Source of the DNA: Firmicutes bacterium UBA6113
GTDB taxonomy: Bacteria > Bacillota > Clostridia > Tissierellales > Sedimentibacteraceae
Assembly (NCBI GenBank): GCA_002422545.1
Contig: DIWF01000024.1
Coordinates: 36,072 to 100,071, forward strand
Reading direction: 5' to 3'
Length of the DNA: 64,000 nucleotides
The notes under the pieces are model-generated. The model saw only the letters and a program-made list of their open reading frames with translations, searched no databases and was not told the DNA's origin. Positions 9,966-52,296 of the stretch are shown piece after piece (the first letter of the stretch is position 1; each line of letters starts with the position of its first letter). A program made the translations under genes and the position numbers.

Positions 9966-10059
9966 CGGGAGGGCACGAGACCCTCCCCTACGGATTGATG
10001 AGCAAATGTTCCGTTTTTGTTGAAATATGAATTCGGGCGGACACGAGATCCGCCCCTAC
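9966..10059. repeat. GTAG-type REP pair (A then B, direct orientation)
   Basis: CGGGAGGGCACGAGACCCTCCCCTAC (9966-9991) and CGGGCGGACACGAGATCCGCCCCTAC (10034-10059), between convergent genes. Confidence 0.9.
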
Positions 10060-10071
10060 AGTTTGATAAAG

Positions 10072-11724
10072 TTAAATATTCTGTTTCTGCAAGAATTTTT
10101 CAAGTTCTTCTGCAAACAACGGCTTGCTGTAGTAGAATCCCTGTATATAATCGCAGTCCGCAGATTTTAATGCCTCAACTTGAGAGATAGTTTCCACTCC
10201 TTCTGCCACAACCTTCATGCCAAACATGTGACATGACTTTATCATGCATTTTATTATTGCAAAATTTTTCTCATTTGAAATCTTGTCTATGAGCAATTTT
10301 TCAATTTTCATGTAGTCAAATATTTCCCCGTATTCCATAAGGTATTTTGCTGAGTTGAAACCAGAGCCGTAATCATCCAGAGACATCTTAATTCCCATTT
10401 CCTTCAATTTTCTCAATTGCTCATGGGCATTTTTCTCATCTAGTATGATTATTCTTTCAGTAAGTTCAAACTCCAGATTATTAGGATTTACATCGTATTC
10501 ATCTAAACATTCTTTGACATAGTCCACAAATGTATCATCGGATAATTCCTTAGCCGAAAGATTTATAGAAACAGGCATGATTATGCCCTTTTCATTCCAT
10601 TCCTTCATCTGCATGGCAGCGTTTTTTATAACCCATCTTGTTATTTGGTTTATGAAACCGGCATCCTCAGCTCTTCTTATGAGTTCGGAAATTGACATGC
10701 TTTTCTTGTCCTTGCCCTTCCACCTTAAAAGTGCTTCCACTCCAATAACTGAATTATTTTCCACATCTATTTTTGGCTGGTATGATAATGTGAACATGTC
10801 ATTTTGCAGAGAATGGTACAATGAAACAAGACCGCTGTAATACTTCTCCTGCTCTATTTCAATAATATCATCATAAATAACAACTTCACTGTGGCACCTC
10901 AAACATTGCTCAATAGCCTTGTCAAGCTTTTCAATCAGCCTGTCCCCGTCGGTTTCATGTTTTGGATAATTTATTACAGCTCCCTTCACCACTATTGATA
11001 CGGGAAAGTTTTCTATGTAGACAGGACTTTTCGTTGTGACAATGAAATTCTTGGCTGATTTAGCTGTTTCACATGCATCCCATTCAGGAAGTATGACAGT
11101 AATTTTATCGTTGGATACAGCATAAATTGTTCCGTTTGCGAAATATTTTTCAGTTTTTTTCAACAGTTCAATAAAAGATTTCTGACTTGTTTCTATGTCA
11201 ACGTAACGCTTGATCATATCAATATTCTGAAATTCAAACAAGATCACCGATATATACTGGTGTTTGCCGCTTGATGTCATAGTGCACAAATCAAGCTTGA
11301 ACTTGTTGAAGTTATAATATCCGGTCCTCAAATCCTCATAAGCTTTTCTTTTTTCGAGTTCTTCTGTTTTTTTAATCTGTTCAATCAGTGATCCCACAAA
11401 TACAACTATGACAATGAATATGCCAATCCTGAACAACCACATGGCAGGTGGCTGCATAATATTGTTTGCAGAATTAAAAGGCAAATAAGGCCCTACTGCC
11501 AGGCCTGCAACAACAGCGGTGATGATTCCTCCCTTGATGCCGAAAACCAAGACAGAAAAAAATAACGGTATATATAAAAGGTGAAGGGATGAATTGCTTC
11601 CTCCCGTCATGTATGCTATCAAAGTTGTTAAGAAAATAGAAAATATAATAAAAACAATGCTCAGTGGATAATTATATGTGTCCTTACCCAAGTCAGCAAC
11701 TAACACTTGTAGTCTTTTATTCAT
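10072..11724 (-). CDS. Membrane-anchored degenerate-GGDEF/EAL cyclic-dinucleotide phosphodiesterase
   Basis: N-terminal TM region; the GGDEF position reads VSNDK (degenerate). The EAL domain keeps EALLRW, SINLS, FELTE, DDYGSG, AEGVET and QGFYYSKP. Confidence 0.88.
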   Translation of the reverse strand: MNKRLQVLVADLGKDTYNYPLSIVFIIFSIFLTTLIAYMTGGSNSSLHLLYIPLFFSVLVFGIKGGIITAVVAGLAVGPYLPFNSANNIMQPPAMWLFRIGIFIVIVVFVGSLIEQIKKTEELEKRKAYEDLRTGYYNFNKFKLDLCTMTSSGKHQYISVILFEFQNIDMIKRYVDIETSQKSFIELLKKTEKYFANGTIYAVSNDKITVILPEWDACETAKSAKNFIVTTKSPVYIENFPVSIVVKGAVINYPKHETDGDRLIEKLDKAIEQCLRCHSEVVIYDDIIEIEQEKYYSGLVSLYHSLQNDMFTLSYQPKIDVENNSVIGVEALLRWKGKDKKSMSISELIRRAEDAGFINQITRWVIKNAAMQMKEWNEKGIIMPVSINLSAKELSDDTFVDYVKECLDEYDVNPNNLEFELTERIIILDEKNAHEQLRKLKEMGIKMSLDDYGSGFNSAKYLMEYGEIFDYMKIEKLLIDKISNEKNFAIIKCMIKSCHMFGMKVVAEGVETISQVEALKSADCDYIQGFYYSKPLFAEELEKFLQKQNI

Positions 11725-12099
11725 AATTGCTCCTAAATTTTATTGCGTTTTATATTATTCGGGCACATCATGGAAAAAACAGGGTGAAAAAATTAATTAA
11801 ATTATTTGACGAAATCGTATTCACAAGAACTACCAATGTTTTCAACAAGCAATACAAATATTTTATATTATTGCAGCAATTTTAGCAAGAGTATAATAAT
11901 AAAATGAAAATTTAATTATGCAAACATCAAGAATATTAATAGTTGCAGATTTTGTGCCAAACATTAATCATTTCTGATTTTTATTGCAAAGTTTACATTT
12001 TAATAATACAATATATTCACCACTAAAGATGGATCTGCTGGAAGTTTTGAAAACAAAAATAAAATAGTAGTGGATTAAATATGGAAAGAGGTGTATTTA

Positions 12100-12657
12100 A
12101 TGAATCCAATGAGAAGAAAAGACCGTGAAATGGACAAGGACTTTGCATACGCTGTAATTGACAAATCACAGTTTGGAACTTTGGCCACAATAAACGAAGA
12201 CGGAAGCCCATACTGTATTCCTGTTTCTCCTGCCAGAAGAGATGATAAAATTTACTTTCACTCTGCAAAACTTGGAACTAAAATTGAAAATATAAAAAGA
12301 AATCCAAAAGTCTGTATGTCTTTTGTAGGAGACGTGCATGTTCCTGTTGAACTCAATGAAAACACAGATGCCAATCAGGAAATCAAAAAAACTCTGGAGA
12401 CAAGATTCACCACTGAGTTTGAATCTGCGGTTGTATTTGGTAATGTGAACATAGTTGAAGATAAAAGCGAGAAAATTTTGGGGCTTAGGCTCATAAGCGA
12501 AAAGTACACGCCTGGTGATATGGAGTACTTTGACGCAGCAATTGATGTAAGCTACAATGTTACATATCTTTTGAGAATTGATATTGAACATGTTACAGGA
12601 AAAAGAAAAAAATATGATAAAAGCGGCACTGAAATGAAATGGGGTCGAATGGAATAA
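12100..12657 (+). CDS. Pyridoxamine 5'-phosphate oxidase-like FMN-binding protein (NimA-like)
   Basis: MRRKDREM N-terminus, GTLAT...PYCIPVS, YFHSAKLGTK and FESAVVFG. A GAGGTG RBS favours the ATG at 12100. Confidence 0.85.
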   Translation: MNPMRRKDREMDKDFAYAVIDKSQFGTLATINEDGSPYCIPVSPARRDDKIYFHSAKLGTKIENIKRNPKVCMSFVGDVHVPVELNENTDANQEIKKTLETRFTTEFESAVVFGNVNIVEDKSEKILGLRLISEKYTPGDMEYFDAAIDVSYNVTYLLRIDIEHVTGKRKKYDKSGTEMKWGRME

Positions 12658-12761
12658 CAGTAACCCCTTTTATTCTTGTGCATATAATTTATTAAAACAG
12701 TGTTTAAGGTATTTTCATCTGGGTATATTATTAATACAACAAATTGTACTTACTTACAATA

Positions 12762-12990
12762 ATCTGCAAGTAATTCCAACAGATCGCTGCATAAAGTTGA
12801 AGAAAAAGAGCTTGTTTGAAAGCTCAATTTGCAGTCAAAGTATCAGAAAATGAAAACAGATGTAAGATAGTTAATTTGATCTTGATGGTGACGAATGAGG
12901 TGATTCCAACAGGATTCGAATTAGAAAACCCAAATAGATAGCACCCGATTTTCAAATTGAAAAGAAAATTGGGTGCTATCTATATTTTTG
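12762..12990 (+). promoter_or_regulatory. Candidate structured 5' leader/attenuator of unknown class upstream of the YibE/F gene
   Basis: About 220 nt non-coding with several hairpins and a 20-bp terminator stem (12934-12983) followed by ATTTTT, about 70 nt before the start codon. Confidence 0.45.
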
Positions 12991-13056
12991 GATTTTAATT
13001 TGAATAATCTCTTTAATGTGATATACTTAGTAAGATTAATTTTTAAGAGGTATGTT

Positions 13057-14220
13057 ATGGAACTGAAAAATTTTAACAATTCAAATAAGGGCAAAGTAGT
13101 GTACATTTTGACTATACTGCTTTCAATAGCATTTATATTAACAGGTTATAACATGAACAAGGTAAGATTTGCCAGTCAGCAATACGAAAAATCATACAGG
13201 GCGGAAATTGTTTCTGTCAACGATGTTTCAGAAGAAACCATTGACAGCGGCTATGAGACTTTTTCAAGCAAGACAGTAAATTTTACTGCAAGAATAACAA
13301 ACGGTGACCAGAAAGGGACCGTAACCGATGCAAGACAATACATGGATGACATGGTGGCTGTTGATGCCAAGATGGTAGAACAAGGTGACAAGATTCTCAT
13401 GTCTTCTCTTATTGCAAGGGACGGTGACGGCAAGGAGTGGACATTTGTTGAATATGACAGAAGCGGCGTGCTCTTAATGCTTTTGATAAGTTTCTTCCTT
13501 CTGATAATCCTGTTTGGGCAAAAAAAAGGACTTAACACCATAATTTCACTGGTACTCACATGTTTATCCATATTCATGGTGTTTGTCCCATCAATTCTTA
13601 AAGGAAACAACATTTATTTGTCATCAATAATCGTGAGCATTTTCATAATTTTCATGAGCCTGTTGATAATAAACGGAGCAGACAAAAAAACATTGTGCGC
13701 CATTGTTGGAAACCTTGGAGGACTTATGATTGCTGGGATCCTTGCCTACTTCATCAGCAAGATTTTAAATCTCACCGGCATAACAGATGATGACACCATG
13801 TTTTTACTCATGCTTGACACAGAAAAACCTATTGACCTGATTGCAGTGCTTTGGAGCAGCATAGTTATCGGTTCCCTTGGAGCTGTAATGGACGTTTCCA
13901 TGTCAATTGCTTCTGCGTTAAATGAACTTTCAGAAAACATGGTTGAAAAAAGTTTCAAAACAATGCTTAAGTCAGGACTGAACATAGGACAGGACGCCAT
14001 AGGCACAATGACAAACACATTGATCCTGGCGTACATAGGAAGTTCTCTGGCTGTAGTGCTCCTGCTTGTTGCAAACTACAACGACACACTTTTGCTGTTT
14101 AACCTGGAGATGATTGTATTTGAAATAATTCAGGCCATCATTGGCAGCATGGGAATTTTGTTTGCAATACCAATAACGTCTGTTTTTGCAGCATATGTTT
14201 ATAATTTGAAGAAGAAATAA
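13057..14220 (+). CDS. YibE/F family membrane protein
   Basis: Conserved IGSLGAVMDVSMSIAS, GxDAIGTMTNTLILAYIGSS and GSMGILFAIPIT motifs. An AGAGGT RBS favours the ATG at 13057. Confidence 0.9.
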   Translation: MELKNFNNSNKGKVVYILTILLSIAFILTGYNMNKVRFASQQYEKSYRAEIVSVNDVSEETIDSGYETFSSKTVNFTARITNGDQKGTVTDARQYMDDMVAVDAKMVEQGDKILMSSLIARDGDGKEWTFVEYDRSGVLLMLLISFFLLIILFGQKKGLNTIISLVLTCLSIFMVFVPSILKGNNIYLSSIIVSIFIIFMSLLIINGADKKTLCAIVGNLGGLMIAGILAYFISKILNLTGITDDDTMFLLMLDTEKPIDLIAVLWSSIVIGSLGAVMDVSMSIASALNELSENMVEKSFKTMLKSGLNIGQDAIGTMTNTLILAYIGSSLAVVLLLVANYNDTLLLFNLEMIVFEIIQAIIGSMGILFAIPITSVFAAYVYNLKKK

Positions 14221-14221
14221 T

Positions 14222-14386
14222 CGGGATTTCAGGTTCACCGTAAAATACCGATTTATCAATAAACCGGGAATCTGAATTCACCGCAAAATGTTATATTATC
14301 AATCTGTAGGGGCGTATCTTGTATACGCCCGTTGCTATTATATCAATGAATTTGTATATGCAGGAGGACACGAGGTCCTCCCCTAC
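14222..14386. repeat. BIME-like REP cluster (duplicated long linker plus inverted B/A REP pair)
   Basis: GTAGGGGCGTATCTTGTATACGCCCG (14306-14331) and CAGGAGGACACGAGGTCCTCCCCTAC (14361-14386), preceded by two TTCACCG(T/C)AAAAT linker copies. Confidence 0.85.
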
Positions 14387-14404
14387 AAAATATATGCAAT
14401 TACT

Positions 14405-14430
14405 AATACCGGATTTTCCGGTATTTTTTT
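14405..14430 (+). terminator. Intrinsic terminator
   Basis: AATACCGGA-TTT-TCCGGTATT followed by a T run. Confidence 0.75.
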
Positions 14431-14457
14431 GTTTGAAAAAATTATTAAAATAATATA

Positions 14458-14486
14458 TTGAACTTATTAAAAAGTTGTGTTATATT
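14458..14486 (+). promoter_or_regulatory. sigmaA promoter for hom
   Basis: TTGAAC-17 nt-TATATT with a TG extension. Confidence 0.6.
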
Positions 14487-14547
14487 AGTCAGGTATTTAT
14501 TCAAAGAACACGTGTACACATACGGAGAACAATTTGCGGAGGTAATT

Positions 14548-15825: not shown

Positions 15826-15828
15826 ATA

Positions 15829-16013
15829 AGGGATGGCTACTGCCATCCCGCGGGCGGGTACAAGACCCGCCCCTACGAATTAATTAATATTAGTATTTTG
15901 CGGTGAATATGTACCTCAGTTTGTAGGGGAGGACCTCGTGTCCTCCCGAAGATAAGAAAATTATTGAAATAATAACAACGGGCAGATACAAAATCCGCCC
16001 GTTGTTATTATTT
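15829..16013. repeat. BIME-like REP cluster (variant hairpin, B, A, and a B converted into a long palindrome)
   Basis: CGGGCGGGTACAAGACCCGCCCCTAC (15851-15876), GTAGGGGAGGACCTCGTGTCCTCCCG (15923-15948) and a palindrome at 15967-16013, between convergent genes. Confidence 0.9.
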
Positions 16014-16592
16014 CTTTTTAAAACTGTTTATTGCGCTGCAGAAAATTTCTGCCAATATTTCATTTCCTTGTTCATTGAAATGCAGTCCGTCTGTGTAGTA
16101 ATCTCCCTGTGACAATTCTGTTGCCTTATCAAACTCCTCGTAAAAGTCAATATACTTGATGTTGAATGTTTTACAGAATTTAAAAATCCACTGGCGGTAT
16201 TCGTAAAGTTCTTTTGCTACCATTTCAAAATCAGTGAAATCGCTCCAGTCCTGTCTTATATTTTTCAAATCTATCTTTGTTGGAATTCCAATTATAGGGT
16301 CTATGTATTTTGCAATGGACTGATGAGCCATGGACATGATATTTGCCTTTACAACACCCAAATCAGCTCCTGCAATAAAATCATTTGCTCCTCCCATGAT
16401 TAACACTGCATCAGGCCTTTTCATGTAAACAGCTTCGTGATAGCGGCTGAGCATTCCTCCGCTTGTGTCTCCGTTTATTCCTTCATTGATTATTTCAATG
16501 ACCAGCTTATCCTGAGCAATTTTGGTCCATATTTTTGATCTTCTTACTCCAAATCCATATGTGAGGCTATCGCCCAAACAAACTATTTTCAT
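16008..16592 (-). CDS. SGNH/GDSL hydrolase
   Basis: GDSLT, GINGD, MGGAND and DGLH blocks. An AAAGGA RBS favours the ATG at 16592. Confidence 0.9.
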   Translation of the reverse strand: MKIVCLGDSLTYGFGVRRSKIWTKIAQDKLVIEIINEGINGDTSGGMLSRYHEAVYMKRPDAVLIMGGANDFIAGADLGVVKANIMSMAHQSIAKYIDPIIGIPTKIDLKNIRQDWSDFTDFEMVAKELYEYRQWIFKFCKTFNIKYIDFYEEFDKATELSQGDYYTDGLHFNEQGNEILAEIFCSAINSFKKK

Positions 16593-16669
16593 ATCTATTC
16601 CTTTCACCGCTGACAAAATTTTCTTGTTTTTAAACAATATCACATCATTTAAGCGGTGTAAAGGCCTTA

Positions 16670-17839
16670 TTACAAGTTTCCTGCAAATGCATTTTCAAGA
16701 ACCGCCATGTAATCTTCCTTGTTCATTGCGCGTGGATTGCTTTCAGTTGAAATATTTCTCACTGACATTTCAGCAAGCATTTCAAAGTCGCTTTTTTTAA
16801 CGCTGAGGCTTGAAAACAAAGGAAGCTTAACATCAACAGCAAGTTTTTTTACTGCATTTACTGCCTTTTTTGCTCCATCTTCAACAGTATCGTACTCAAT
16901 ACCCATTGCTTTGGCAATTCTTGCATAGCGCTCCATACAAAAGCTCATGTTGTAATCCATAACATATGGCAGGAATATTGCGTTGCACACACCGTGAGGC
17001 AAATCGTAAACTCCTCCCAATGATTCAGCCACGCAGTGAACAGAAGCCACGTCAGAATGGCTGAAAGCTATGCCTGCAAGCATGCTGCCTAGAAGCATGG
17101 CGCTTCTTGCTTCTAAATTGCTCATTTCATTGACTGCAGTCAAAAGATTGTTGTAAATCAGTTCCACAGCATACAATGCCACAGCATCGCTTATGGGTTC
17201 AGCACATGTTGCAGTATAAGCTTCTATTGCATGAGTAAGTGCATCCATGCCTGTTGAAGCTGTTATATGAGAAGGAAGGGACAAAGTCAGTTCAGGATCG
17301 CATATGGCAACCTTAGCTGCTGTGTACTGGCTTTTTACAGTCATTTTGTAATTGTTTGCAGTATCAGTGATTACCGATGAAAATGTAAGCTCACTTCCTG
17401 TTCCGGATGTTGTTGGAATTGTTATTAAAAGAGGAAGAGGCTCTGTAGCAGCAGTCTTGCCTTCGTACTTCTTTATTTTATCAGCATTGTGGGCAAGAAG
17501 AACACCTACGGATTTGGCACAGTCAATAGGACTTCCCCCACCGACTGCTATAATGGAGTCCGTTCCAAATTCTCTTGCAATTCTTGCTCCTTCTTCTGCA
17601 TTGACGTCCTTTGGATTTGCTTCCACTCCGTCATAAATTATGTATTCTATGCTATCTTTGTTCAAAATTTTAGTAATTTTATCTAAAATGCCTGCATTTC
17701 TAACGCCCTTGTCCGTTACTATAATAGGTCTTTTTCCTCCGAAGGTTTTCATTTCGTCGCTTAATGATTTAAGACATCCAGGCCCGTACACAATTTTTGT
17801 AGGTAATGTAAAGCTAAATGGTGATGTAAAATTGTTCAT
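16670..17839 (-). CDS. Iron-containing alcohol dehydrogenase
   Basis: GGGSPIDCAK, IPTTSGTGSE, TGMDALTHAIEA and HCVAE...HGVCNA motifs. Confidence 0.93.
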   Translation of the reverse strand: MNNFTSPFSFTLPTKIVYGPGCLKSLSDEMKTFGGKRPIIVTDKGVRNAGILDKITKILNKDSIEYIIYDGVEANPKDVNAEEGARIAREFGTDSIIAVGGGSPIDCAKSVGVLLAHNADKIKKYEGKTAATEPLPLLITIPTTSGTGSELTFSSVITDTANNYKMTVKSQYTAAKVAICDPELTLSLPSHITASTGMDALTHAIEAYTATCAEPISDAVALYAVELIYNNLLTAVNEMSNLEARSAMLLGSMLAGIAFSHSDVASVHCVAESLGGVYDLPHGVCNAIFLPYVMDYNMSFCMERYARIAKAMGIEYDTVEDGAKKAVNAVKKLAVDVKLPLFSSLSVKKSDFEMLAEMSVRNISTESNPRAMNKEDYMAVLENAFAGNL

Positions 17840-18036
17840 ATTATTCCCTCCAAGATTTTTTATATAATAATATATCTTTTTGTTTATAAATTCAACTATA
17901 AACGTAAATTGTTATAAAGTTATACTTCAGCACATGCATGCTATGGAATGAATTTGTTTCTATATGAATATAATATAGGAGGTATGTCCTGAATCATTAA
18001 ATAATTAACGCAATATCAAAAACATGGAGGGATTTT

Positions 18037-18987
18037 ATGAAAAAAAGAATTTCTACTTTATTAGTACTTGTTTTATTGGTGAGTACAGTATTTACTGCAT
18101 GCGCTGCACAAAAAACAAACCTGATTCTTGCCACAGGCGGAACTTCAGGCACCTACTATCCTTTCGGCGGAGCTATGGCGCAAATTTTTAACACTAAAGT
18201 TGAAAATATGAATGTCACAGCACAGGCCACCGGCGCTTCTGTTGAAAATTGCAAGCTTCTTGGTAAAAATGAAGCTGAGCTGGCAATTCTTCAAAATGAT
18301 ATGTTGGATTATGCTTACAATGGAACCGAAGCATTCAGTGAAGGAAAAATTGAAAATTTAAGAGGAATTGCCATATTGTATCCTGAAATAGTTCAGATTG
18401 TTGCTTCCGAAGGTATAACAACTGTTGAAGACTTAAACGGAAAGAAAGTATCAGTTGGAGCACCTGGCAGCGGAGTTGAAGCAAATGCCAGACAAATTCT
18501 CGAAGCAGCTGATCTAACATATGATGATATGTCAGTAAGCTATTTGTCTTTCTCCGAATCAGCAGACGCATACAAGGACAAACACATTGATAGTTTCTTT
18601 GTTACTTCAGGCATTCCTAATGCTTCTATTCAGGATATTTCTACCCAAAACCCGGTTTCTCTTGTTTCATTGTCAGATGAAGCAATTAAAGGACTGATAG
18701 AAAAATATCCGTTCTTTGTTGAGTACACAATTCCTGCAAATACATACAACGGACAGACTAATGACGTAAAGACTGTTGCTGTAATGGCTACACTTGCTAC
18801 TAACGCCGAAGCTTCCGAAGATGTTATTTACAACATCACAAAATCATTGTTCGACAATCAGGCCGAACTTGCATCAGCTCATGCCAAAGGAGCCGAACTG
18901 TCTCTTGAAGGAGCAATAAACGGTATTTCCATACCTCTTCATCCTGGAGCAGAAAAATATTTCAAAGAAGCAGGTTTGATTAAATAG
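18037..18987 (+). CDS. TAXI family TRAP solute-binding lipoprotein
   Basis: Lipobox-like FTAC, ATGGTSGTYYPFGG, TGASVEN, VGAPGSG and PLHPGAEKYF. Confidence 0.92.
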   Translation: MKKRISTLLVLVLLVSTVFTACAAQKTNLILATGGTSGTYYPFGGAMAQIFNTKVENMNVTAQATGASVENCKLLGKNEAELAILQNDMLDYAYNGTEAFSEGKIENLRGIAILYPEIVQIVASEGITTVEDLNGKKVSVGAPGSGVEANARQILEAADLTYDDMSVSYLSFSESADAYKDKHIDSFFVTSGIPNASIQDISTQNPVSLVSLSDEAIKGLIEKYPFFVEYTIPANTYNGQTNDVKTVAVMATLATNAEASEDVIYNITKSLFDNQAELASAHAKGAELSLEGAINGISIPLHPGAEKYFKEAGLIK

Positions 18988-19028
18988 TAAATTTAATTAT
19001 TGATACAAGTTGACATATATGTCAACTT

Positions 19029-19098
19029 GTAGGGGAGGGTCTCGTGCCCTCCCGTGTATGCGTCTACCTGTGCGGGCGGGCACAAGACCCGCCCCTAC
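19029..19098. repeat. Inverted A/B REP doublet inside the TRAP operon
   Basis: GTAGGGGAGGGTCTCGTGCCCTCCCG (19029-19054) and CGGGCGGGCACAAGACCCGCCCCTAC (19073-19098). Confidence 0.9.
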
Positions 19099-19171
19099 AA
19101 ACTGAAATTTCATATACATTTATTCAATTATTAAAGCTATTCCCTTTGCTACATCATCCAAAGGAGCTTTT

Positions 19172-19675
19172 ATGAAAAAGTCAATAATTAGTGCGACAAT
19201 AATAATTTTTTTGGCAATAATTATTTTTTTTATCCCAATGTTTAGCAGGTTCACAATTTCTGACGGGAAAACAGGAAAGTTAGTGTACTGCGGCAAAATT
19301 GAAGACTTTGAAGAATTTTACATTAGCTTCATTCATTCTGTCAACAGAACTCCCGTAAATGAATATTACAGGATTGAAAACTGCAGATTTCTTGTTTACA
19401 AAACAACATTTTATTCATATGGTGCCGGTATGCCTGACGGCAGCGACAATCCTGACGCCCATATAAAATTTGTTGATGGAAAAGTTGAAATTGACAATAT
19501 TAACAGAATTTTAAGCGAATTTACCGTCTTAGTCGGAACATTGGCTGACCACACCCTTCATGGGTCTAATACGAACTTTGAGCTGGATAAGTATGTTGAG
19601 CCCCAAAATCAAGCTCTTTTTAAAATAAAGAGGGTATCAATTTATGATATATTAAGGAGGCAGATTTATGAATGA
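19172..19675 (+). CDS. DUF1850 family protein (TAXI-TRAP associated)
   Basis: FIHSVNRTPVNEYY and YSYGAGMP motifs; lies between the TAXI and fused-permease genes. Confidence 0.8.
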   Translation: MKKSIISATIIIFLAIIIFFIPMFSRFTISDGKTGKLVYCGKIEDFEEFYISFIHSVNRTPVNEYYRIENCRFLVYKTTFYSYGAGMPDGSDNPDAHIKFVDGKVEIDNINRILSEFTVLVGTLADHTLHGSNTNFELDKYVEPQNQALFKIKRVSIYDILRRQIYE

Positions 19676-21617
19676 TGACAATTTAAATAAGAATCAAGTT
19701 CCGGAAGAAATAAACATTGATGATATAATGGCCAAGTACGACAAGGAATCCGCCTACCGAAGGCTAAGCGGAACACAGCTTAAAATTGTGTCCGTTGTTG
19801 CAATTTTATTTTCCTGTTTCCAATTATATACTTCAATTGCAGGAATATTGCCTGCACAGCTTCAGCGTTCCATACATCTTGCATTTGTCTTTGCACTTGT
19901 ATACTTGATGTATCCTGCCAGCAAAAAAATGAGCAAGGATAAATTCAAATGGTACGATATGTGTTTGGCTGTTCTCGGAGCAGGTGTTGCATTGTACTTA
20001 ACATTCAATTTCCAATCACTGCTGCTAAGAGCCGGTGATCAGACAACTTTGGATATTGTTATAGGCGGCATTGCAATTTTGCTTGTTCTTGAAGGAGCAA
20101 GGCGAGTTGTGGGACTTCCCATTGCTGTAATTGCAACAGTGTTTTTAGCATATGGAGTGCTTGGGCCATATCTTCCTGGATTTTTGAATCACAGAGGATA
20201 TTCAATTGCACGTATTGTAAGTCACATGTATTATACTACCGAAGGAATTTTGGGTATTCCTCTTGGTGTTGCTGCTACATTTATATTTTTGTTCATACTT
20301 CTTGGTTCATTTTTGGAAAAGACGGGCATTGGGCAGTTCTTCATTGACCTGGCAAACTCCGTTGCAGGCTTTGCTGCAGGTGGTCCTGCCAAGGTCGCCG
20401 TATTAACAAGCGCCCTTGAAGGAACTGTTTCAGGAAGTTCTGTTGCCAACACCGTAGGCTCCGGAAGTTTCACAATTCCATTGATGAAAAGCCTTGGTTA
20501 CAAACCTGAATTTGCTGCTGCAGTTGAAGCAGCTGCATCCACAGGTGGTCAGATAATGCCTCCTATTATGGGAGCCGCAGCATTCCTGATGGCGGAATTC
20601 ATTGGTATACCATATGCTCAAATTGCAAAGGCAGCTGTAATACCTGCTCTTTTGTATTTCATGGGAATATGGATAAGTGTTCACCTTGAAGCAAAAAAGC
20701 TTGGGATGAGAGGAATGAGCAAAGAAGAACTTCCGAGATTTTCAAAGGTAATGCTGGACAGAGGATATCTTTTCCTGCCCTTGGTTGGAATAGTTTATTT
20801 TCTTGTTGAAGGAGCGACTCCCGTGAAGGCTGCTCTTTACGGATTAGGTCTTGCTGTTGCAACAAGTTTTATAAGAAAAATCACAAGGCTCAGCTTAAAA
20901 AATATACTTGAAGCTCTGGAACAAGGAGCTAAAAATGCACTTGGAGTTTCAGTTGCATGTGCATGCGCAGGAATTATAGTAGGAACAATTACGCTGACAG
21001 GACTTGGCCTCAAGCTTGGAAACGGATTGGTTTCACTTTCCGGAGGAAACCTCATAATAACTTTGATATTCACAATGATTACATCACTTATTCTGGGAAT
21101 GGGAGCTCCTACAACAGCCAACTATGTAATAACCTCAACAATTGCTGCTCCGGCTCTTGTAAAACTTGGTGTTCCGGTATTGGCCGCCCACATGTTCACA
21201 TTTTACTTTGGAATAATTGCTGACATAACTCCTCCTGTTGCATTAGCTGCATTTGCAGGAAGCGCTATTGCAAAAAGCAATCCTCTGAAGACAGGCATAA
21301 CAGCCAGCAAGCTTGCCATAGCTGCATTCATAATTCCATATATATTTGTCTTGAATCCTGCAATACTTTTGATAGACACCACGGCACTTAAGGTTGTTCA
21401 GATAATTGTAACATCAGTAATTGGAATGGTAGGAATAAGCGCAGCAATGGAAGGTTATCTTTACACTACAGCCAACAAAATTGAAAGAGCTGCATTTTTA
21501 ATAGGAGGACTTTGTCTTGTGGACCCAGATGCCGTCACGGACATAGCCGGATTGGTAATACTGGGAGCCGCTTTCTTGTACCAAAAGAAAAAATCATCCA
21601 GAAAAATTACAATGTAA
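19668..21617 (+). CDS. TRAP transporter fused 4TM/12TM permease
   Basis: EGILGIPLGV, GGPAKVAV, SGSSVAN, ASTGGQIMPPIMGAAAF, LGMGAPTTANY and ITPPVALAAFA. Confidence 0.93.
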   Translation: MNDDNLNKNQVPEEINIDDIMAKYDKESAYRRLSGTQLKIVSVVAILFSCFQLYTSIAGILPAQLQRSIHLAFVFALVYLMYPASKKMSKDKFKWYDMCLAVLGAGVALYLTFNFQSLLLRAGDQTTLDIVIGGIAILLVLEGARRVVGLPIAVIATVFLAYGVLGPYLPGFLNHRGYSIARIVSHMYYTTEGILGIPLGVAATFIFLFILLGSFLEKTGIGQFFIDLANSVAGFAAGGPAKVAVLTSALEGTVSGSSVANTVGSGSFTIPLMKSLGYKPEFAAAVEAAASTGGQIMPPIMGAAAFLMAEFIGIPYAQIAKAAVIPALLYFMGIWISVHLEAKKLGMRGMSKEELPRFSKVMLDRGYLFLPLVGIVYFLVEGATPVKAALYGLGLAVATSFIRKITRLSLKNILEALEQGAKNALGVSVACACAGIIVGTITLTGLGLKLGNGLVSLSGGNLIITLIFTMITSLILGMGAPTTANYVITSTIAAPALVKLGVPVLAAHMFTFYFGIIADITPPVALAAFAGSAIAKSNPLKTGITASKLAIAAFIIPYIFVLNPAILLIDTTALKVVQIIVTSVIGMVGISAAMEGYLYTTANKIERAAFLIGGLCLVDPDAVTDIAGLVILGAAFLYQKKKSSRKITM

Positions 21618-21651
21618 AATGCAATATATGTAAATATATTACTAACGATTC

Positions 21652-21703
21652 GTAGGGGCGGGTCTTGTGGAGGCCCGCGGGAGGACACGAGGTCCTCCCC
21701 TAC
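21652..21703. repeat. Back-to-back B/A REP doublet
   Basis: GTAGGGGCGGGTCTTGTGGAGGCCCG directly followed by CGGGAGGACACGAGGTCCTCCCCTAC, between convergent genes. Confidence 0.85.
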
Positions 21704-21722
21704 ATTATTGAAACAAAAATAT

Positions 21723-22517
21723 TTAATTACCCTGTTCCATTTTTTCTCTTAATGCACAAATTGATTTTTCAAGTGCTTCTGCAGTCTTCACTTCTACAAG
21801 AGCCCTTATGTCTTTATGTCCTGCAAAATTCATGAGTTCCATGATGTCAAGTTCACCTTCAAAGAGAACCTGGTGGTCCTTTTTATCTAAACAATCGTGT
21901 ATGTGCATGTGAACAATGCTTTTTTCGTTCTCCATCAAATACTTCCTGTCTGTAAATAAGCTTACAGCATCGTGCCCTGTGTCCCAGGTGAGTTTTATAT
22001 TAGGATAAGTGATTGATTGATCCAAAGTTTTTTGTATGAAAGCCTTGCCGAAATTGCTGCTGTTTTCTATGGCAAGAATCACATTTTTTTCTTCAGCTTT
22101 TTGGGAAAGAATCTTGATGGATTTAATGAAGTTGTTTGTATACTCTTCCGAGTATTGGTCATATATATATACCTTCCTGTCAGGGAGAGTCATTTTTGCT
22201 CCTTCAATTATATGCATATTCAAAAGCTTGATTCCTGCTCGTTCAGCCCAGTCAATAGTGTCTGAAAAAAGCTTGACATACCCTTCTCTAACGCTTTCGT
22301 AAAATGTTCCTATGTCAGCATCATCAGGCATGTGCATAGTAAATTCAATGCCTTTGTCCTGAGTAATTTTTTTTAATTTTGAAGGATTAATATTTTCTAT
22401 AAAATTGTACGGAAGATTCATGTTGAGCTCAATAAAGTCAAGCTTAAGCTTTAGACACAATTCTACCAGTTCATTTATGGATGTGTATTCAACCAATGCA
22501 GGCATTCCCAGTTTCAT
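21723..22517 (-). CDS. Sugar phosphate isomerase/epimerase (xylose-isomerase-like TIM barrel)
   Basis: Metal ligands in LAIEN, WDTGH, HMHIHD and LVEVK; DHQVLFEG motif. Confidence 0.8.
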   Translation of the reverse strand: MKLGMPALVEYTSINELVELCLKLKLDFIELNMNLPYNFIENINPSKLKKITQDKGIEFTMHMPDDADIGTFYESVREGYVKLFSDTIDWAERAGIKLLNMHIIEGAKMTLPDRKVYIYDQYSEEYTNNFIKSIKILSQKAEEKNVILAIENSSNFGKAFIQKTLDQSITYPNIKLTWDTGHDAVSLFTDRKYLMENEKSIVHMHIHDCLDKKDHQVLFEGELDIMELMNFAGHKDIRALVEVKTAEALEKSICALREKMEQGN

Positions 22518-39520: not shown

Positions 39521-39790
39521 CGGGCGGACACAAGGTCCGCCCCTACAAATCAATAAATTGATATCTTGCCATGAATTTGAAATCACCGGTTGTAGGGGAG
39601 AACCTCGTGTTCTCCCGTAGATAGATGTTATTGAATCAACAACACATGCTTACACAAGATCCGCCAGTACAAATCGATAAATTGATATCTTGCCATGAAT
39701 TTGAAATCACGGGTTGTAGGGGAGGACCTCGTGTCCTCCCGAAGTTATTATTGAATCAACAACACGGGCGGATACAAGATCCGCCCCTAC
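39521..39790. repeat. BIME-like tandem array of five alternating REPs (B, A, degenerate B, A, B), period about 120-124 nt
   Basis: REPs at 39521, 39592, about 39645, 39716 and 39765, separated by alternating near-identical long (about 45 nt) and short (23-27 nt) linkers. Confidence 0.92.
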
Positions 39791-42031: not shown

Positions 42032-42231
42032 GTAGGGGCGGATCTTGTATCCGCCCGTGTTACTAGTTCAATAACTTATGTTATCTTCGGGAGGACACGA
42101 GGTCCTCCCCTACAACCTGTTATTCTAAATCATCGTAAAATGTCAATTTATCGATTCGTAGGGGCTTGTATCCGCCCGTGTTATTAATTCAATAATTCTG
42201 GTACCTTCGGGAGGGCAGTAACCCTCCCTAC
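42032..42231. repeat. BIME-like array of four alternating REPs (B, A, deleted B, degenerate A)
   Basis: REPs at 42032, 42088, 42158 and 42208. The linkers are reverse-complement homologues of those at 39521-39790. Confidence 0.9.
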
Positions 42232-42265
42232 ATTTATATAACGCAATTGTTATAAAGGAGAAAAA

Positions 42266-46432: not shown

Positions 46433-46484
46433 GTAGGGGAGGACCTTGTGTCCTCCCGCGGGCGGGCACAAGACCCGCCCCTAC
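46433..46484. repeat. Back-to-back A/B REP doublet
   Basis: GTAGGGGAGGACCTTGTGTCCTCCCG directly followed by CGGGCGGGCACAAGACCCGCCCCTAC. Confidence 0.92.
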
Positions 46485-46533: not shown

Positions 46534-46545
46534 CACATTTTATTC

Positions 46546-48207: not shown

Positions 48208-48217
48208 TAAAAAAATC

Positions 48218-48243
48218 AAAAACCTGCCTCGGCAGGTTTTTTT
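48218..48243. terminator. Bidirectional terminator
   Basis: AAAAACCTGCC-TC-GGCAGGTTTTT. Confidence 0.85.
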
Positions 48244-49315
48244 ATTTCCTCATTTTTTCTTTTTCTATGTCGCACATTCCTTTTTCTATAAGTCTCATGT
48301 CAACTGCTTCCTCTATGATGGTCTTAATTAACACCACAACCGGAACTCCCATTATCATTCCAGGAATACCAAACAAGTTTCCTCCTACCGTAACAGATGT
48401 GATTATCCAGAATGGACTTACGCCAACGTTGTTTCCCACAATCTTAGGGTCAAGAATGTTTGCGTCAAGCTGCTGAATCACTATGATTATAATGAGAGCA
48501 TATACAGCCTTAGGCGGATCCACGAAAAATGAAACAATAACCACAGGAATCGATCCTATTATAGGACCAAAGTAAGGAATGATGTTGAACACTCCTATAA
48601 TTGTTCCCATGAGCGGCGCATATGGCACCTTGAATATGTAGAACGCTATTACGCATATAACTCCCACAATTGCTGAATCAAGCAATTTTCCGTTTAAAAA
48701 GCTTTTAAAAATTTTATTTCCGCGGCTGAATGCTTCAAGAGTTTTTCTTGCTTTATTTTCGTTAAAATAAGCATATATGAATCTTCTTCCCCTGGCCAGA
48801 ATGTCTTCTTTTTCAGAAAGCATGTAAATATTTATGATAAAGCTTGTTATAACAGTAAAAGTGCTTGAACCTATGTTGGTTACAAGCCTCATAAGCATGT
48901 TTGACACTCTGAGGAGCAAATCATTTATGAGCCCCTTCACAGATTCGCTTGCTTCAAGGATATAATCCGTAACGTATAAAACATATGGGTGGTCAATTCT
49001 ATTCTTAAGGTCCGTAACTATCTTAACAACGTCCACATTTCCATCCATGATAAAATTTACTATGTTATTAATATTTTCAACAATCTGAGGCACAACCTTG
49101 TATATAAGTGTACTTATGAGACCTATTAGAATTATGCAGGCAAGGAAAATCCCCTGTGCCCTTCTTACCTTGAGCTTCTTCATGAAAAACTCAACAACCG
49201 AGTCAAGAAGATACGCAATTATAAGCGCATAAATAACAGGCTTGAATGAATCTATAATCCAGCTGAAAGCGCCTGGATTAAAAACAATCAGCAAAATTAT
49301 CAAAGCCATGAACAT
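48242..49315 (-). CDS. AI-2E family transporter (the true start may lie upstream at 49357)
   Basis: IAYLLD, GKLLDSAIVG, IPYFGPIIG, QQLDANILDPKIVG and FGIPGMIMGVP. Confidence 0.9.
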   Translation of the reverse strand: MFMALIILLIVFNPGAFSWIIDSFKPVIYALIIAYLLDSVVEFFMKKLKVRRAQGIFLACIILIGLISTLIYKVVPQIVENINNIVNFIMDGNVDVVKIVTDLKNRIDHPYVLYVTDYILEASESVKGLINDLLLRVSNMLMRLVTNIGSSTFTVITSFIINIYMLSEKEDILARGRRFIYAYFNENKARKTLEAFSRGNKIFKSFLNGKLLDSAIVGVICVIAFYIFKVPYAPLMGTIIGVFNIIPYFGPIIGSIPVVIVSFFVDPPKAVYALIIIIVIQQLDANILDPKIVGNNVGVSPFWIITSVTVGGNLFGIPGMIMGVPVVVLIKTIIEEAVDMRLIEKGMCDIEKEKMRK

Positions 49316-49373
49316 TATGGGTAGTGATAATCTTACTATGCTTTTATATTTTTCGATGGTATTATCTCCTTTG

Positions 49374-51140
49374 CTACATTATTTTGGCCTGGCCTCTGTA
49401 AACAACGCCCTGTCTTCCGTTGACAGTAAGAAGTTCTCCATCCTTTATGACTTTTGTGCAGTCTTCTGCTCCGACTATTACTTCAATTCCAAGATTCAGT
49501 CCTGCAATGAATGCATGAGATGTGAGGCCGCCTTCTTCAACTATTATTGCCGAAGCTCTAGACATATATTCAATTACATCCTTGTCAGTTGCGGTCATGA
49601 CTATAATATCACCGTCTTCAAACTTGTCTTTCAGTTCTTCAGCGTTCATAGCAACTCTTGCCTTTGCAATGACAGTTTCTTTTCCAACTCCCACTCTCTT
49701 GTAAAGAATTTCACTTACTATATGAACCTTTAAAAGGTTTGTGCTGCCTGAAACTCCAACGGGAACGCCTGCTGTTATTATTGTCAGGTCTCCGTTTTCG
49801 ATGTAGCCCATTTCCAGTGCTCTTTCCACAGACTTTTCAACTATTTCATCAGTAGAATTAAGCTTTTCAATTTGAATAGGGTATACTCCCCAGTAAAGTG
49901 ACATCCTTCTCATTACCTGCTCTGACTGAGTGGCTGCTATAATTGGAGCCTTTGGTCTGTACCTGGATACTGCTGCTGCTGTGTAGCCTGATGATGTTGC
50001 TGAAATTATTGCAGAAGCCTTTAGGTCAAGGCAAGTCTTGCATGTTGCGTAGCTTATGGAATCAGTTATGCTGTTTTGAAATGCTATGTTTTTGTTTTTC
50101 AATATTTCATCATAATCCAACGAGTTTTCTATCATTGTTGCTATTCTTGACATGGTCTTGACTGCTTCTGTTGGATAACTTCCTGATGCTGTTTCTCCCG
50201 AAAGCATTATGGCGTCTGAACCTTCAAATATGGCTGTTGCAACGTCTGAAACCTCAGCCCTTGTAGGACGAGGGTTTCGCATCATTGAATCCAGCATCTG
50301 TGTTGCTGTGATAACCGGTTTACCTGCATCGTTGCACTTCTTGATGAGAGTTTTCTGAACCAGAGGAACTTCCTCAGCAGGTATTTCAACTCCCAAGTCT
50401 CCCCTTGCAACCATAATTCCGTCTGAAACTTCTATAATTTCATCAATGTTTTCCACACCCTGCCTGTTTTCAATTTTGGAGATTATCATTATGTTGTCTG
50501 CAAGACTGTCTTCCAGAATCCTTCTTATGGCAATTACATCTTCTGCTTTTCTTATAAATGATGCTGCTATGTAATCAATGCCATTTTCGATTCCAAACTG
50601 GATGTCGTCTATGTCTCTTTCAGTAAGAGCAGGCAAATTTATTTGAACGTTTGGGACATTTATTCCTTTTTTGTTTTTTACGGTTCCTCCGTTTTTTACA
50701 ATGCATCTTAAATCAGTGCTGTTTAATGATTCAACGACTTCAAGACATATGAGACCGTCATCTATGAGCACTGTGTCGCCAGGTTTTACATCCAAAGCAA
50801 ACTTATCGTATGTAACGCTTGCAATATTTTTGTTTCCCAGTATATCCCTTGTGGTCAAGATGAATTCCTGATCCTTTGCCAGTTCAGCAACACCGTTTTC
50901 AAAATCTCTTGTTCTTATTTCAGGGCCCTTTGTATCCAGCATTATCGCAGTACAGGTTCCAAGATCTTCACGTACTTTTTTAATCACATCTATTTTTGCC
51001 TTGTGTTCTTCATGGTTTCCGTGAGAAAAATTAAGCCTTGCCACGTTTAATCCGTTTAAAACAAGTTCCTTGAAGGACTTTTCATCCTGAGATGATGGTC
51101 CTATGGTGCACACAATTTTCGTCTTTCTTAATTTCTGCAT
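49374..51140 (-). CDS. pyk: Pyruvate kinase with C-terminal PEP-utiliser swivel domain
   Basis: KTKIVCTIGP, ARLNFSHG, DTKGPEIR, MVARGDLGVE, TQMLDSM, MLSGETA and GGLTSHA. Confidence 0.97.
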   Translation of the reverse strand: MQKLRKTKIVCTIGPSSQDEKSFKELVLNGLNVARLNFSHGNHEEHKAKIDVIKKVREDLGTCTAIMLDTKGPEIRTRDFENGVAELAKDQEFILTTRDILGNKNIASVTYDKFALDVKPGDTVLIDDGLICLEVVESLNSTDLRCIVKNGGTVKNKKGINVPNVQINLPALTERDIDDIQFGIENGIDYIAASFIRKAEDVIAIRRILEDSLADNIMIISKIENRQGVENIDEIIEVSDGIMVARGDLGVEIPAEEVPLVQKTLIKKCNDAGKPVITATQMLDSMMRNPRPTRAEVSDVATAIFEGSDAIMLSGETASGSYPTEAVKTMSRIATMIENSLDYDEILKNKNIAFQNSITDSISYATCKTCLDLKASAIISATSSGYTAAAVSRYRPKAPIIAATQSEQVMRRMSLYWGVYPIQIEKLNSTDEIVEKSVERALEMGYIENGDLTIITAGVPVGVSGSTNLLKVHIVSEILYKRVGVGKETVIAKARVAMNAEELKDKFEDGDIIVMTATDKDVIEYMSRASAIIVEEGGLTSHAFIAGLNLGIEVIVGAEDCTKVIKDGELLTVNGRQGVVYRGQAKIM

Positions 51141-51185
51141 ATTATCACTCCTTTTAACTTCCTATTGTAAAATCACCTTGAACAT

Positions 51186-52145
51186 TTATATGGAAAGTAT
51201 TTTTGTCAGCTCGTATGTCTTTTCATCGAATTTCTTTTCCATTGAAAGAGCTTCTTCAATATCCATGTGGAATATTTCATTTCCTCTTATTCCCAGCACT
51301 CTGTTGGAAACAGAATTTGTCAAGAGCTCTACGGACATGGCACCCATCTGGCTTCCCATGAGCCTGTCAAATGCTGAGGGTGTGCCTCCTCTTTGAGTGT
51401 ATCCGAGAACAGAATATCTTGTGCCGACTCCTGTCTTTTTTTCAATCAATTCACTGATGTCCTTTGCATCTCCTGCACCTTCTGCCAGGATTATTATGCT
51501 GTGCTTCTTTCCTCTTGCCCTGCCCTGCATTATTTTATCGCACACTTCATCAATATTATAATCAACTTCAGGAATTATAACCATTTCTGCTCCGCCGGCC
51601 AAGCCTGCATACAAAGCTATGTCTCCGCAGTTTCTGCCCATAACCTGAATTACATTTGTCCTTCCGTGAGATGATGAAGTGTCCCTGATTTTTTCAACTG
51701 ACTCAAGCACCGTGGTAAGTGCCGTGAAAAATCCGAGGGTATACTGAGTGTATGCCAAATCATTGTCTATTGTACCGGGTATTCCGATTGTGGGCACTCC
51801 TGCCTTTGCAAGCTCCATGGCTCCCATAAACGTACCGTCTCCTCCTATGGTAACAATACCGTCAAGGCCTAAATATTTTACATTCTTCAATGCCTTTTCA
51901 AAGCCTTCCTTTTCCTGGAATTCCTTGCTTCTGGCACTTCCAAGAACGGTTCCACCTCTATGAATAATATCTGCAACTGAAGAAAGGCTCATCTCCACAG
52001 AATCCCCTTCAACCAGGCCTCTGAATCCGTTTTTAATACCCACAACATTTATGTTATTGAAAATTCCGTATCTTACTACTGCCCTGATAGCAGCATTCAT
52101 TCCCGGCGCATCTCCTCCGCTGGTAAGTACTCCGATTTTTTTCAT
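51186..52145 (-). CDS. pfkA: ATP-dependent 6-phosphofructokinase
   Basis: [31 protein letters not shown] and LGYTQRGG. Confidence 0.97.
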
Positions 52146-52242
52146 GAAAGCCTCCTGTTTTTTTAATTAAGAATTAATAGTTAAGAATTAAGAATTATTA
52201 CTTAAATATAATTCAGTTTGATGACAAAGTTATTTCAATTTT

Positions 52243-52296
52243 GTAGGGGAGGACCTCGTGTCCTCCCGCGCGGGCGGGTACAAGACCCGCCCCTAC
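52243..52296. repeat. Back-to-back A/B REP doublet between dnaE and pfkA
   Basis: GTAGGGGAGGACCTCGTGTCCTCCCG-CG-CGGGCGGGTACAAGACCCGCCCCTAC. Confidence 0.92.

Follow-up and report, generated by a model that had tools for sequence, protein, structure and literature searches.

A 64,000-nt stretch of the genome of Firmicutes bacterium UBA6113 (assembly GCA_002422545.1, contig DIWF01000024.1, positions 36,072-100,071 of the forward strand; hereafter the window) carries a dense population of repetitive extragenic palindromic (REP) sequences around a gene for a REP-associated tyrosine transposase (RAYT). The evidence points to GTAG-tagged REPs, arranged in part as mosaics resembling bacterial interspersed mosaic elements (BIMEs), and to a cognate, single-copy RAYT of subclass 2.4 (group 4) lying inside a REPtron, a reading to which we assign a probability of roughly 0.8. 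The hairpins themselves have the features of GTAG-tagged REPs (Nunvar 2010, Di Nocera 2013): they are stem-loops of 26 nt, inside the 20-40 nt usual for the class, with the conserved GT[AG]G tetranucleotide as 5' foot, their stems have undergone compensatory changes and the RAYT is flanked by copies of them.

REP biology has been established almost entirely in Proteobacteria. The host of the window is a Sedimentibacter (Bacillota, class Tissierellia); a Sedimentibacter sp. contig (L040) is 90% identical to the window across 2 kb, and the sequencing runs that contain most of the stretch carry the label hydrocarbon metagenome. A dense and evolving REP/RAYT system is thus on record for a genus of strictly anaerobic Bacillota from hydrocarbon-degrading and sludge communities. 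It is an ordinary system in a bacterial group where such systems are little described, and it leaves the known picture of REPs and RAYTs unchanged. The system is less new than the original prediction, which had been made from the letters of this DNA, supposed: heterotypic dimers and complementary stem changes in many GTAG families and the RAYT clade were already known (PMC3733652, PMC6006769, PMC5581495). No Firmicutes are among the GTAG-repeat phyla in the survey of Di Nocera 2013 (PMC3733652), and Nunvar 2010 makes no mention of Firmicutes, Clostridia or Gram-positive bacteria.

REP hairpins and their clusters

The core of the repeat, GTAGGGGMGGR, has 24 exact matches in the window against 0.02 expected from shuffled sequence. 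A scan with the 26-nt consensus, GTAGGGGMGGRYCTYGTRYCCKCCCG, at up to seven mismatches finds 29 sites, where 20 shuffles gave 0 or 1. A covariance model built from 28 aligned full-length copies, with which the window was scored with filters off, brings the total to 30 REPs in 64 kb, namely the 28 full-length copies and two indel variants (model matches 42156-42180(+) and 42206-42233(-)); 22 of the 30 have the exact consensus. No further REP site was found in the 64 kb, the remaining model matches (E 0.2-0.8) overlapping the 30, mostly on the opposite strand. An Rfam scan of the window found no family for the REP hairpins and matched only two c-di-GMP-I riboswitches. The estimate of about 30 copies in 11 intergenic clusters with which the work began is thus borne out.

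In each 26-nt unit GTAG precedes a stem of 8 bp, in which positions 5-12 pair with 18-25 around a CTYGT loop, and a G closes the 3' end. The GTAG foot lies outside the stem, as had been claimed; of the 28 full-length copies aligned, 26 have it intact. Of the cells in the stem alignment 96.5% are paired, four of the eight pairs have undergone double changes and no shuffle in 500 reached the observed score; pairing falls to 43-67% when the 3' partners are slid. Stem pair 4 is A-T or C-G, pair 6 is G-C, A-T or T-A, pair 7 is A-T or G-C, and pair 8 (positions 12/18) is C-G, T-A or T-G. The hairpin of the original prediction therefore stands, with a stem one pair longer than supposed, positions 12 and 18 also covarying. 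All the stem variants it had named (GAGGA/TCCTC, GAGGG/CCCTC, GCGGA/TCCGC, GCGGG/CCCGC and GCGTA/TACGC) are present, and a further one, GAGAA/TTCTC, occurs at 39592. Covariation is confined to the interior of the stem; GTAG, the GGG/CCC pairs and T, G and T of the loop are invariant or nearly so. Single REPs are predicted to fold with -8.8 to -10.6 kcal/mol (z about -4).

Copies were assigned to two subtypes by stem pair 4, A-T defining subtype A (GAGG...CCTC) and C-G subtype B (GCGG...CCGC). The claimed alternation is strict, every one of the 19 pairs of neighbouring REPs having A next to B. Orientation alternates as well in 10 of the 11 clusters, cluster 1, with both copies on the minus strand, being the exception (Table 1). 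Four layouts can be distinguished. Around the RAYT lie three doublets of identical plan that are 93-97% alike. Clusters 3, 8 and 9 are mosaics with linkers of 23-30 nt between hairpin bodies and of 44-46 nt between GTAG feet (in cluster 8, 45-nt linkers alternate with linkers of 23-27 nt), and linkers of both classes are homologous among the three clusters. With alternating orientation, two subtypes and a small set of conserved linkers, these three answer to the description of BIMEs. The third layout is the compact doublet, with 0-2 nt between bodies in clusters 5, 10 and 11 and 18 nt in cluster 4, and the fourth is the single direct pair of cluster 1. Over 89 bp, cluster 11 matches a doublet of Sedimentibacter saalensis (L053) that is not syntenic with it, at 91% identity.

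Table 1. Position and composition of the RAYT gene and of the eleven REP clusters in the window. Signs after A and B give the orientation of the copy.
Feature	Position	Strand	Composition and setting
RAYT / TnpA-REP gene	28712-29227	-	171 aa (P0001); HUH motif N77-H78-I79-H80; W130-Q131; Tyr Y151 in YIDNNP
REP cluster 1	9966..10059	-	A 9966-9991, B 10034-10059, 42-nt linker; convergent genes; sole head-to-tail pair
REP cluster 2	14306..14386	.	B(+) with GCGTA/TACGC stem, 29-nt linker, A(-)
REP cluster 3	15851..16004	.	B(-), 46-nt linker, A(+), 30-nt linker, degenerate B(-)
REP cluster 4	19029..19098	.	A(+), 18-nt linker, B(-); within TRAP-transporter operon
REP cluster 5	21652..21703	.	B(+) with mutated 3' arm, 0-nt linker, A(-)
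REP cluster 6	28489..28705	.	two tandem 86-bp doublets (B-, 34-nt spacer, A+); directly downstream of RAYT
REP cluster 7	29249..29334	.	one 86-bp doublet (B-, 34-nt spacer, A+); directly upstream of RAYT start
REP cluster 8	39521..39790	.	BIME-like: B-, A+ (GAGAA/TTCTC), degenerate B-, A+, B-; convergent genes
REP cluster 9	42032..42231	.	B+, A-, truncated B+ (42158-42178, 5' arm deleted), variant A- (42208-42231, TTACT loop)
REP cluster 10	46433..46484	.	compact A(+)/B(-), 0-nt linker; convergent genes
REP cluster 11	52243..52296	.	compact A(+)/B(-), 2-nt linker

The clusters, which together span 9966-52296, are all intergenic. Clusters are present in 5 of the 8 intergenic regions between convergent genes, in 6 of the 31 between tandem genes and in none of the 9 between divergent genes; every cluster lies downstream of at least one gene and the REPs are restricted to gene 3' ends. 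Terminator-like hairpins stand beside REPs at 9904-9923, 14405-14425 and 15830-15849, and cluster 2 lies between the stop of gene 12973-14220 and the second of these. Because several REPs fall between a stop codon and a terminator, they are probably transcribed. After each stop codon the first REP has GTAG in the sense orientation in 11 cases and antisense in 4 (hand count); this is not significant, and the bias is forced by the geometry of the doublets.

Such placement might mean that the REPs are kept mainly for a role in the host (protection or termination of mRNA in the 3' untranslated region, or protein binding), the RAYT being incidental or an occasional source of copies. The confinement to the downstream side of genes, the position of several clusters behind a stop codon and ahead of a separate terminator-like hairpin, the T-G that makes up stem pair 8 on the GTAG strand in 8 of 25 distinct sequences and a degenerate copy built into the terminator-like hairpin 15967-16013 all fit this, and E. 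coli REPs are known to serve their host in such ways (reviewed in PMC6006769, PMC3733652). Yet intact REPs have no T tract, clusters have been gained and lost between close relatives while the neighbouring genes stayed unchanged, and across phyla the hairpin sequence is conserved with RAYTs and not with any host gene. We regard a mainly host-serving population as unlikely, although a host role is compatible with the explanation that we favour, a population of REPs maintained with a cognate RAYT. Intrinsic termination was rejected as the main role because intact REPs are without a T tract and have distinct terminator-like hairpins beside them.

One copy looks like a remnant reused as an intrinsic terminator: the degenerate B at 15979-16004 lies inside an extended 20-bp hairpin with a T-rich tail, 15967-16013(-), immediately past the stop of the GDSL-lipase gene 16008-16643(-).

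The RAYT and the hairpin in other phyla

The window contains one RAYT gene, intact, with REP doublets on both sides as in a REPtron (Table 1), which upholds the earlier proposal of a RAYT-linked REP system in a Firmicute. Its product scores 37.1 bits against Pfam Y1_Tnp (cut-off 23). The best NCBIfam model is REP_Tyr_transpos (NF047646) at 63.2 bits, with transpos_IS200 at 36.3. A profile of the RAYT family matches the solved structure of E. coli TnpA-REP (4ER8) at 1e-10, with the HUH, WQ and catalytic Tyr motifs aligned, and matches ISDra2 and IS200/IS608-type chains at 3.6e-4 or worse; the single sequence reaches only E 0.78 with E. coli TnpA-REP, the two being alignable at the profile level only. 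Judged by profile and NCBIfam scores, the putative enzyme is closer to TnpA-REP than to the IS200/IS605 transposases. In an alignment of 51 sequences P76, N77, H78, I79, H80, Q131 and Y151 never vary and W130 hardly does. The AlphaFold2 model of the protein has a predicted local distance difference test (pLDDT) score of 84.5; all its Foldseek matches at E <= 1e-5 are Y1 transposases, and among the 30 significant matches 4ER8 has the top TM-score on the query (0.58; root-mean-square deviation 3.4 A).

Subclass 2.4, which corresponds to RAYT group 4 of Bertels, has the signature NH[IFV]H, WQ and YIxNNP (PMC6006769), and the motifs NHIH, WQ and YIDNNP of the window protein match it, which would place the protein in that subclass. 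REPs of subclass 2.4 have three G-C pairs at the stem base (PMC6006769), and its RAYTs are known from many phyla (PMC6006769, PMC5581495). The family is large, with 8,134 cluster representatives at E <= 1e-10. Homologs at 79-89% identity are labelled RayT by the Joint Genome Institute; the next named relatives are from Pasteurellaceae (47%) and from Oscillospiraceae, Ruminococcus and metagenome-assembled genomes (MAGs) of Clostridia (about 40%). Many of the top cluster representatives match in two stretches, split near residue 90.

The hairpin extends well beyond the relatives of the window. We scanned one genome per species with a 26-nt REP pattern of 18 fixed and 8 two-fold positions, for which, on our own estimate, less than one match is expected by chance in about 6e11 bases. 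At least 114 stretches (L001-L114), from genomes of 32-76% G+C, contain it; Chloroflexota, Planctomycetota, Acidobacteriota, Omnitrophota, Bacteroidota, several proteobacterial classes, Clostridia and others are among the matches listed. One Nanoarchaeia MAG contig (L039) is also among the matches listed.

In three of these stretches (L001, L002 and L099) the hairpin flanks RAYT homologs that are 31-36% identical to the window protein, and a fourth (L003) has a weak match of 20%. Two more homologs, both from Omnitrophota and 32-36% identical (L031 7201-7764 and L073 394-891), contain REP hairpins within the gene, between the HUH and Tyr motifs. In L031 the REPs are read in frame (VGATLVVAP, RAGTRPAPT), and the L073 product has ADTRPAPT. 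Insertion of REPs into the gene is a peculiarity of subclass 2.4 and frequent there (Quentin 2018, PMC6006769). In these sequences the REP hairpin is far more conserved than its presumed enzyme, and a hairpin that outlasts the conservation of its enzyme argues for a constraint from recognition and against recent transfer.

The same 26-mer is held by 23 IMG/VR contigs, three of which (L130, L134 and L141) have four to five copies on one strand, 1.3-2.5 kb apart. None of the 23 has a RAYT homolog or resembles the window; they may come from phages that carry REPs or from hosts whose DNA was classed as viral.

Cluster turnover among close relatives

The RAYT keeps its place among relatives of the window. 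In L119, L144 and L146, whose coding DNA is about 90% identical to that of the window, it lies, as in the window, downstream of GH26 with a DUF3221 gene on one side and response-regulator and histidine-kinase genes on the other; in L147, whose RAYT is 58% identical, it lies between GH26 and DUF3221. The site is syntenic in all four, with RAYT identities of 58-81% where measured, and among relatives at 58-89% the reading frame and catalytic motifs are intact and conserved at one locus. Judged from the one copy in the window and its site in four relatives, the gene shows the single-copy, vertically inherited pattern of domesticated RAYTs.

The REP clusters behave differently, as a comparison with L118, L119, L144 and L146 made plain: they are not fixed, and both the number of units and the presence of whole doublets differ at about 90% DNA identity. 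The copies of S. saalensis DSM 13558, many of them single, lie on at least six scaffolds. As far as these comparisons reach, the copies are thus neither limited to one region nor fixed among relatives, the result that would have told against the original prediction. Cluster 1, which reads A, B in the window, reads B, degenerate, A in L119. Cluster 2 is kept in L119, and in L118 its A copy has an indel in the loop region. At the site of cluster 3, L119 has a different palindromic element, apparently splitting the remnant of the degenerate B, and L118 has a 1.5-kb insertion. In L146 the A copy of cluster 4 is a hybrid, its 5' arm being of B type and its 3' arm of A type. Downstream of the RAYT the window has two doublets and L119, L144 and L146 have one. 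Conversely, where the window has an empty 52-nt spacer (32412-32465), L146 has between its HisRS-like and Gate genes a full unit of about 150 nt (B, 30-nt linker, A, long linker), and L144 has the second palindromic element described below. The alternation of A and B is kept in L119, L144 and L146; the seven REPs in 20 kb of L147 are all of B type and mostly singletons.

Whole genes are involved as well. A 3.8-kb segment (17907-21733) containing an operon for a tripartite ATP-independent periplasmic (TRAP) transporter (NMT1_3, DUF1850, DctM) and clusters 4 and 5, the latter at its right edge, is present in L146 and absent from L119, where only a truncated REP is left (13453-13520); L144 has a barnase/barstar pair in its place (17379-18433). 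The REP clusters here mark a hot spot of gene content, and REPs thus point to sites at which close relatives differ in their genes. In metagenome runs the summed contig depth of the doublet 46433-46484 is about 6-25 times that of its flanks, with several different flanking sequences. Assemblies also break at the GC-rich hairpins: contig L040 has a REP cluster at its end, and short metagenome contigs pile up in large numbers on 46433-46484.

These differences bear on whether the REPs are decaying relics of a past burst on which the RAYT no longer acts. Four copies are degenerate or truncated (15979, 39645, 42158 and 42208), the 3' arm at 21652 is mutated, and the genome sequence recurs identically in three metagenomes, the assemblies of which have the RAYT with 100% identical flanks. 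With 22 of 30 copies at the exact consensus, an intact RAYT conserved at 58-89% among relatives and whole units present or absent at about 90% DNA identity, however, decay is very improbable as an account of the population.

Two further observations concern the same sites. A second palindromic element of about 85-190 nt, with the core TGTCATTCTGAGAGC...GAAGAATCTCATG...GATGAGATCC...CTCAGGATGACAG, occurs at L144 6497-6632, L119 11356-11554 and L118 about 2900-3040, sites that are REP clusters or empty in other relatives; a search of the window did not find it. In L119 (20451-21124) all three of the RAYT-flanking REPs that were detected have the loop variant TACT or TTACT, one base shorter than CTYGT, which suggests a concerted change around the RAYT; the TTACT variant is also found in one window copy, 42208-42231.

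Subtype alternation, proposed mechanism and known systems

By analogy with what was found in vitro for E. coli, S. maltophilia and Marinomonas (PMC8266576, PMC6006769), each REP would fold on the GTAG-bearing strand of single-stranded DNA. The RAYT would bind this folded strand, reading the GTAG foot, the G-C-rich base of the stem and the near-invariant CTYGT loop, and the interior of the stem would be recognized mainly as structure, which would explain its freedom to covary. Through Y151 and the HUH metal site the enzyme may then cut and rejoin beside the hairpin, and this would spread, duplicate or delete units of one REP pair with its linkers. The conservation pattern, with GTAG, GGG/CCC and T, G and T of the loop fixed or nearly so and the stem interior covarying, fits such a model of recognition. 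Transcribed REPs may serve in addition as hairpins of the 3' untranslated region.

In this model heterotypy would stop the arms of an inverted doublet from pairing with each other. Each arm would then fold by itself, leaving its GTAG free, and a long perfect palindrome would not arise. Folds of single-stranded DNA were predicted in silico with DNA parameters. The real doublet 46433-46484, an A followed by a reverse-complemented B, is predicted to form two hairpins with free GTAG feet (-17.8 kcal/mol), whereas artificial doublets of A with reverse-complemented A or of B with reverse-complemented B are predicted to form one 24-bp hairpin (-29.8 and -34.7 kcal/mol). An own-stem probability of at least 0.8 was obtained for both arms in 12 of the 16 window doublets and for the intact arm alone in three more; in all homotypic control doublets this probability was 0.00. 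Among doublets of other phyla those with five or more differences mostly form separate hairpins.

Inverted pairs are non-identical elsewhere, too. At the cross-phylum loci, differences at two or more positions of stem or loop occur in 51 of 58 inverted and in 8 of 20 direct pairs (Fisher p = 6e-5), rough figures because the survey is biased towards consensus-like REP copies. The Sedimentibacter subtypes differ by A-T versus C-G at stem pair 4, and at pairs 7 and 8; in other phyla the differences are likewise compensated and fall at other stem positions (10/11 with 19/20, 9 with 21, 8 with 22), and direct arrays are mostly homotypic. In most of the GTAG and CGTC families surveyed by Di Nocera 2013 heterodimers were favoured; that survey saw "no obvious explanation" for this and suggested that heterodimers are protected from hairpin-cleaving enzymes (PMC3733652). 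We put forward, tentatively and as the less probable side of the question, that for the REPs of group-4 RAYTs selection keeps inverted doublets heterotypic, blocking pairing between arms and the formation of long perfect palindromes. If this were true, it would account for the preference for heterodimers to which Di Nocera 2013 gave no answer, and the stem interior would be a partner-avoidance code, repeatedly evolved around a nearly invariant pan-bacterial hairpin (GTAG-GGG...CTYGT...CCC). One 26-base hairpin across many phyla, with enzymes down to about 32% identity and inverted pairs that are not identical, makes heterotypy a hypothesis that can be tested at the bench.

Alternation might instead be history only, founder A-B doublets having been copied as units with no selection for heterotypy. 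Clusters 3, 8 and 9 have linkers in common, and so have the three RAYT-flanking doublets, which implies that whole periods were copied; the doublet inserted in L146 brings both linkers with it. If whole units are copied, the 19 heterotypic neighbour pairs are not independent events. What such a history explains less readily is that A stays beside B in four architectures (34-nt doublets with GTAG inward, mosaics with linkers of 45 and 23-30 nt, doublets with 0-2 nt and a direct pair), that in other phyla inverted pairs are heterotypic at other stem positions and direct arrays mostly homotypic, and that heterodimers are preferred in most families (Di Nocera 2013, PMC3733652). A purely historical origin of the alternation remains a serious candidate, if short of an even chance.

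Strict alternation in the 11 clusters and in L119, L144 and L146 would also be expected if A and B were distinct substrates of which the RAYT needs one each, in the manner of IS200/IS605 ends or of Y and Z2 in E. coli BIME-2. The three doublets beside the RAYT share the order B-, spacer, A+, and the E. coli REPtron likewise has Y/Z2 pairs (PMC6006769). But L147, with its 58%-identical RAYT, has B-type copies only, mostly singletons; the RAYT homologs of other phyla have homotypic flanks (A/A in L001, all C-G at pair 4 in L002 and L099); and A and B differ only in freely covarying stem pairs, not in GTAG or the loop. A requirement for one of each is improbable on this evidence.

Several results weigh against our preferred explanation, that of GTAG REPs in BIME-like mosaics with a cognate RAYT, or against its extension to heterotypy. 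At 63.2 bits the protein falls below the curated NF047646 cut-off of 80, an equivalog threshold, and is therefore a relative of that set rather than a member of it. The three metagenome copies are identical to the window, so that no movement within the population is seen. No REP lies in window positions 1-9965 or in about 8 kb beyond the left end (L149 12374-21893), about 18 kb in total, nor in the 11.7 kb from 52297 to 64000; as these flanking regions are REP-free despite long spacers, REP density is patchy. The RNA data, Logan contigs of sludge metatranscriptomes from relatives at 90-95% identity, are uninformative on 3' ends: one contig spans the doublet 46433-46484 and the others break at the repeat. 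Cluster 4, alone among the 16 window doublets, is predicted as one long hairpin, as are many doublets of other phyla with four or fewer differences. The rationale for heterotypy is a purely thermodynamic prediction, and the alternation of A and B could have been inherited from a few founder doublets.

The REP-free left region is one of polysaccharide-synthesis and SLH genes, and several spacers in the REP-free regions exceed 150 nt.

Among known systems, the RAYTs of subclass 2.4 (group 4) share with that of the window the NH[IFV]H, WQ and YIxNNP motifs, a length of about 170-190 aa, flanking REPs and a patchy distribution over many phyla; their REPs share a GT[AG]G foot directly at the stem and a base of three G-C pairs. 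Relatives of the window protein include those of Pasteurellaceae, the group that Bertels used for group 4. The host differs, the hosts named for the subclass being mainly Cyanobacteria, Bacteroidetes, Chlorobia, Caldilineae and Haemophilus (PMC6006769, PMC5581495), and the window RAYT has no in-frame REP insertion. REP density in the window is high, with 30 copies in 42 kb, whereas the commonest flanking 16-mer of group 4 has about 14 occurrences (Bertels 2017, PMC5581495).

E. coli TnpA-REP (4ER8; subclass 2.2, group 2) is the best solved relative of the window protein. Its REPs, too, are GTAG hairpins at gene 3' ends and flank a single-copy RAYT, and in BIME-2 two subtypes alternate in orientation with two alternating classes of linker (compare Y-s-Z2-l). 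They are, however, long-stemmed with a bulge that the enzyme requires, whereas in those of the window the stem is short and perfect, with 8 bp, and the loop has 5 nt, and the window subtypes differ by a compensated stem pair rather than by loop length or stem irregularities.

The SMAG REPs of Stenotrophomonas maltophilia resemble those of the window in their perfect 8-bp stem and short loop. In vitro, GTAG is needed for cleavage there, a loop base is critical and the stem sequence is tolerated if paired (Corneloup 2021, PMC8266576). These requirements match the pattern of the window, with its invariant GTAG and loop and its covarying stem. The S. maltophilia RAYT is of subclass 2.5 (group 3), and its REP loop has 3 nt against 5 nt in the window.

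The REPINs of Pseudomonas fluorescens, as Bertels and Rainey are said to have described them in 2011, are inverted doublets that form one long hairpin. In the window, as with REPINs, what replicates is apparently an inverted doublet together with its spacer, relatives differ by gain and loss of doublets, and the RAYT is single-copy and vertically inherited. Both arms are predicted to fold separately in 12 of the 16 window doublets, owing to their heterotypic arms, and on these modelled folds the system is not a REPIN in the strict structural sense. With the GTAG and CGTC dimers of Di Nocera 2013 (PMC3733652) it shares head-head and tail-tail dimers, the preference for heterodimers, a position downstream of genes and sub-families set by complementary stem changes.

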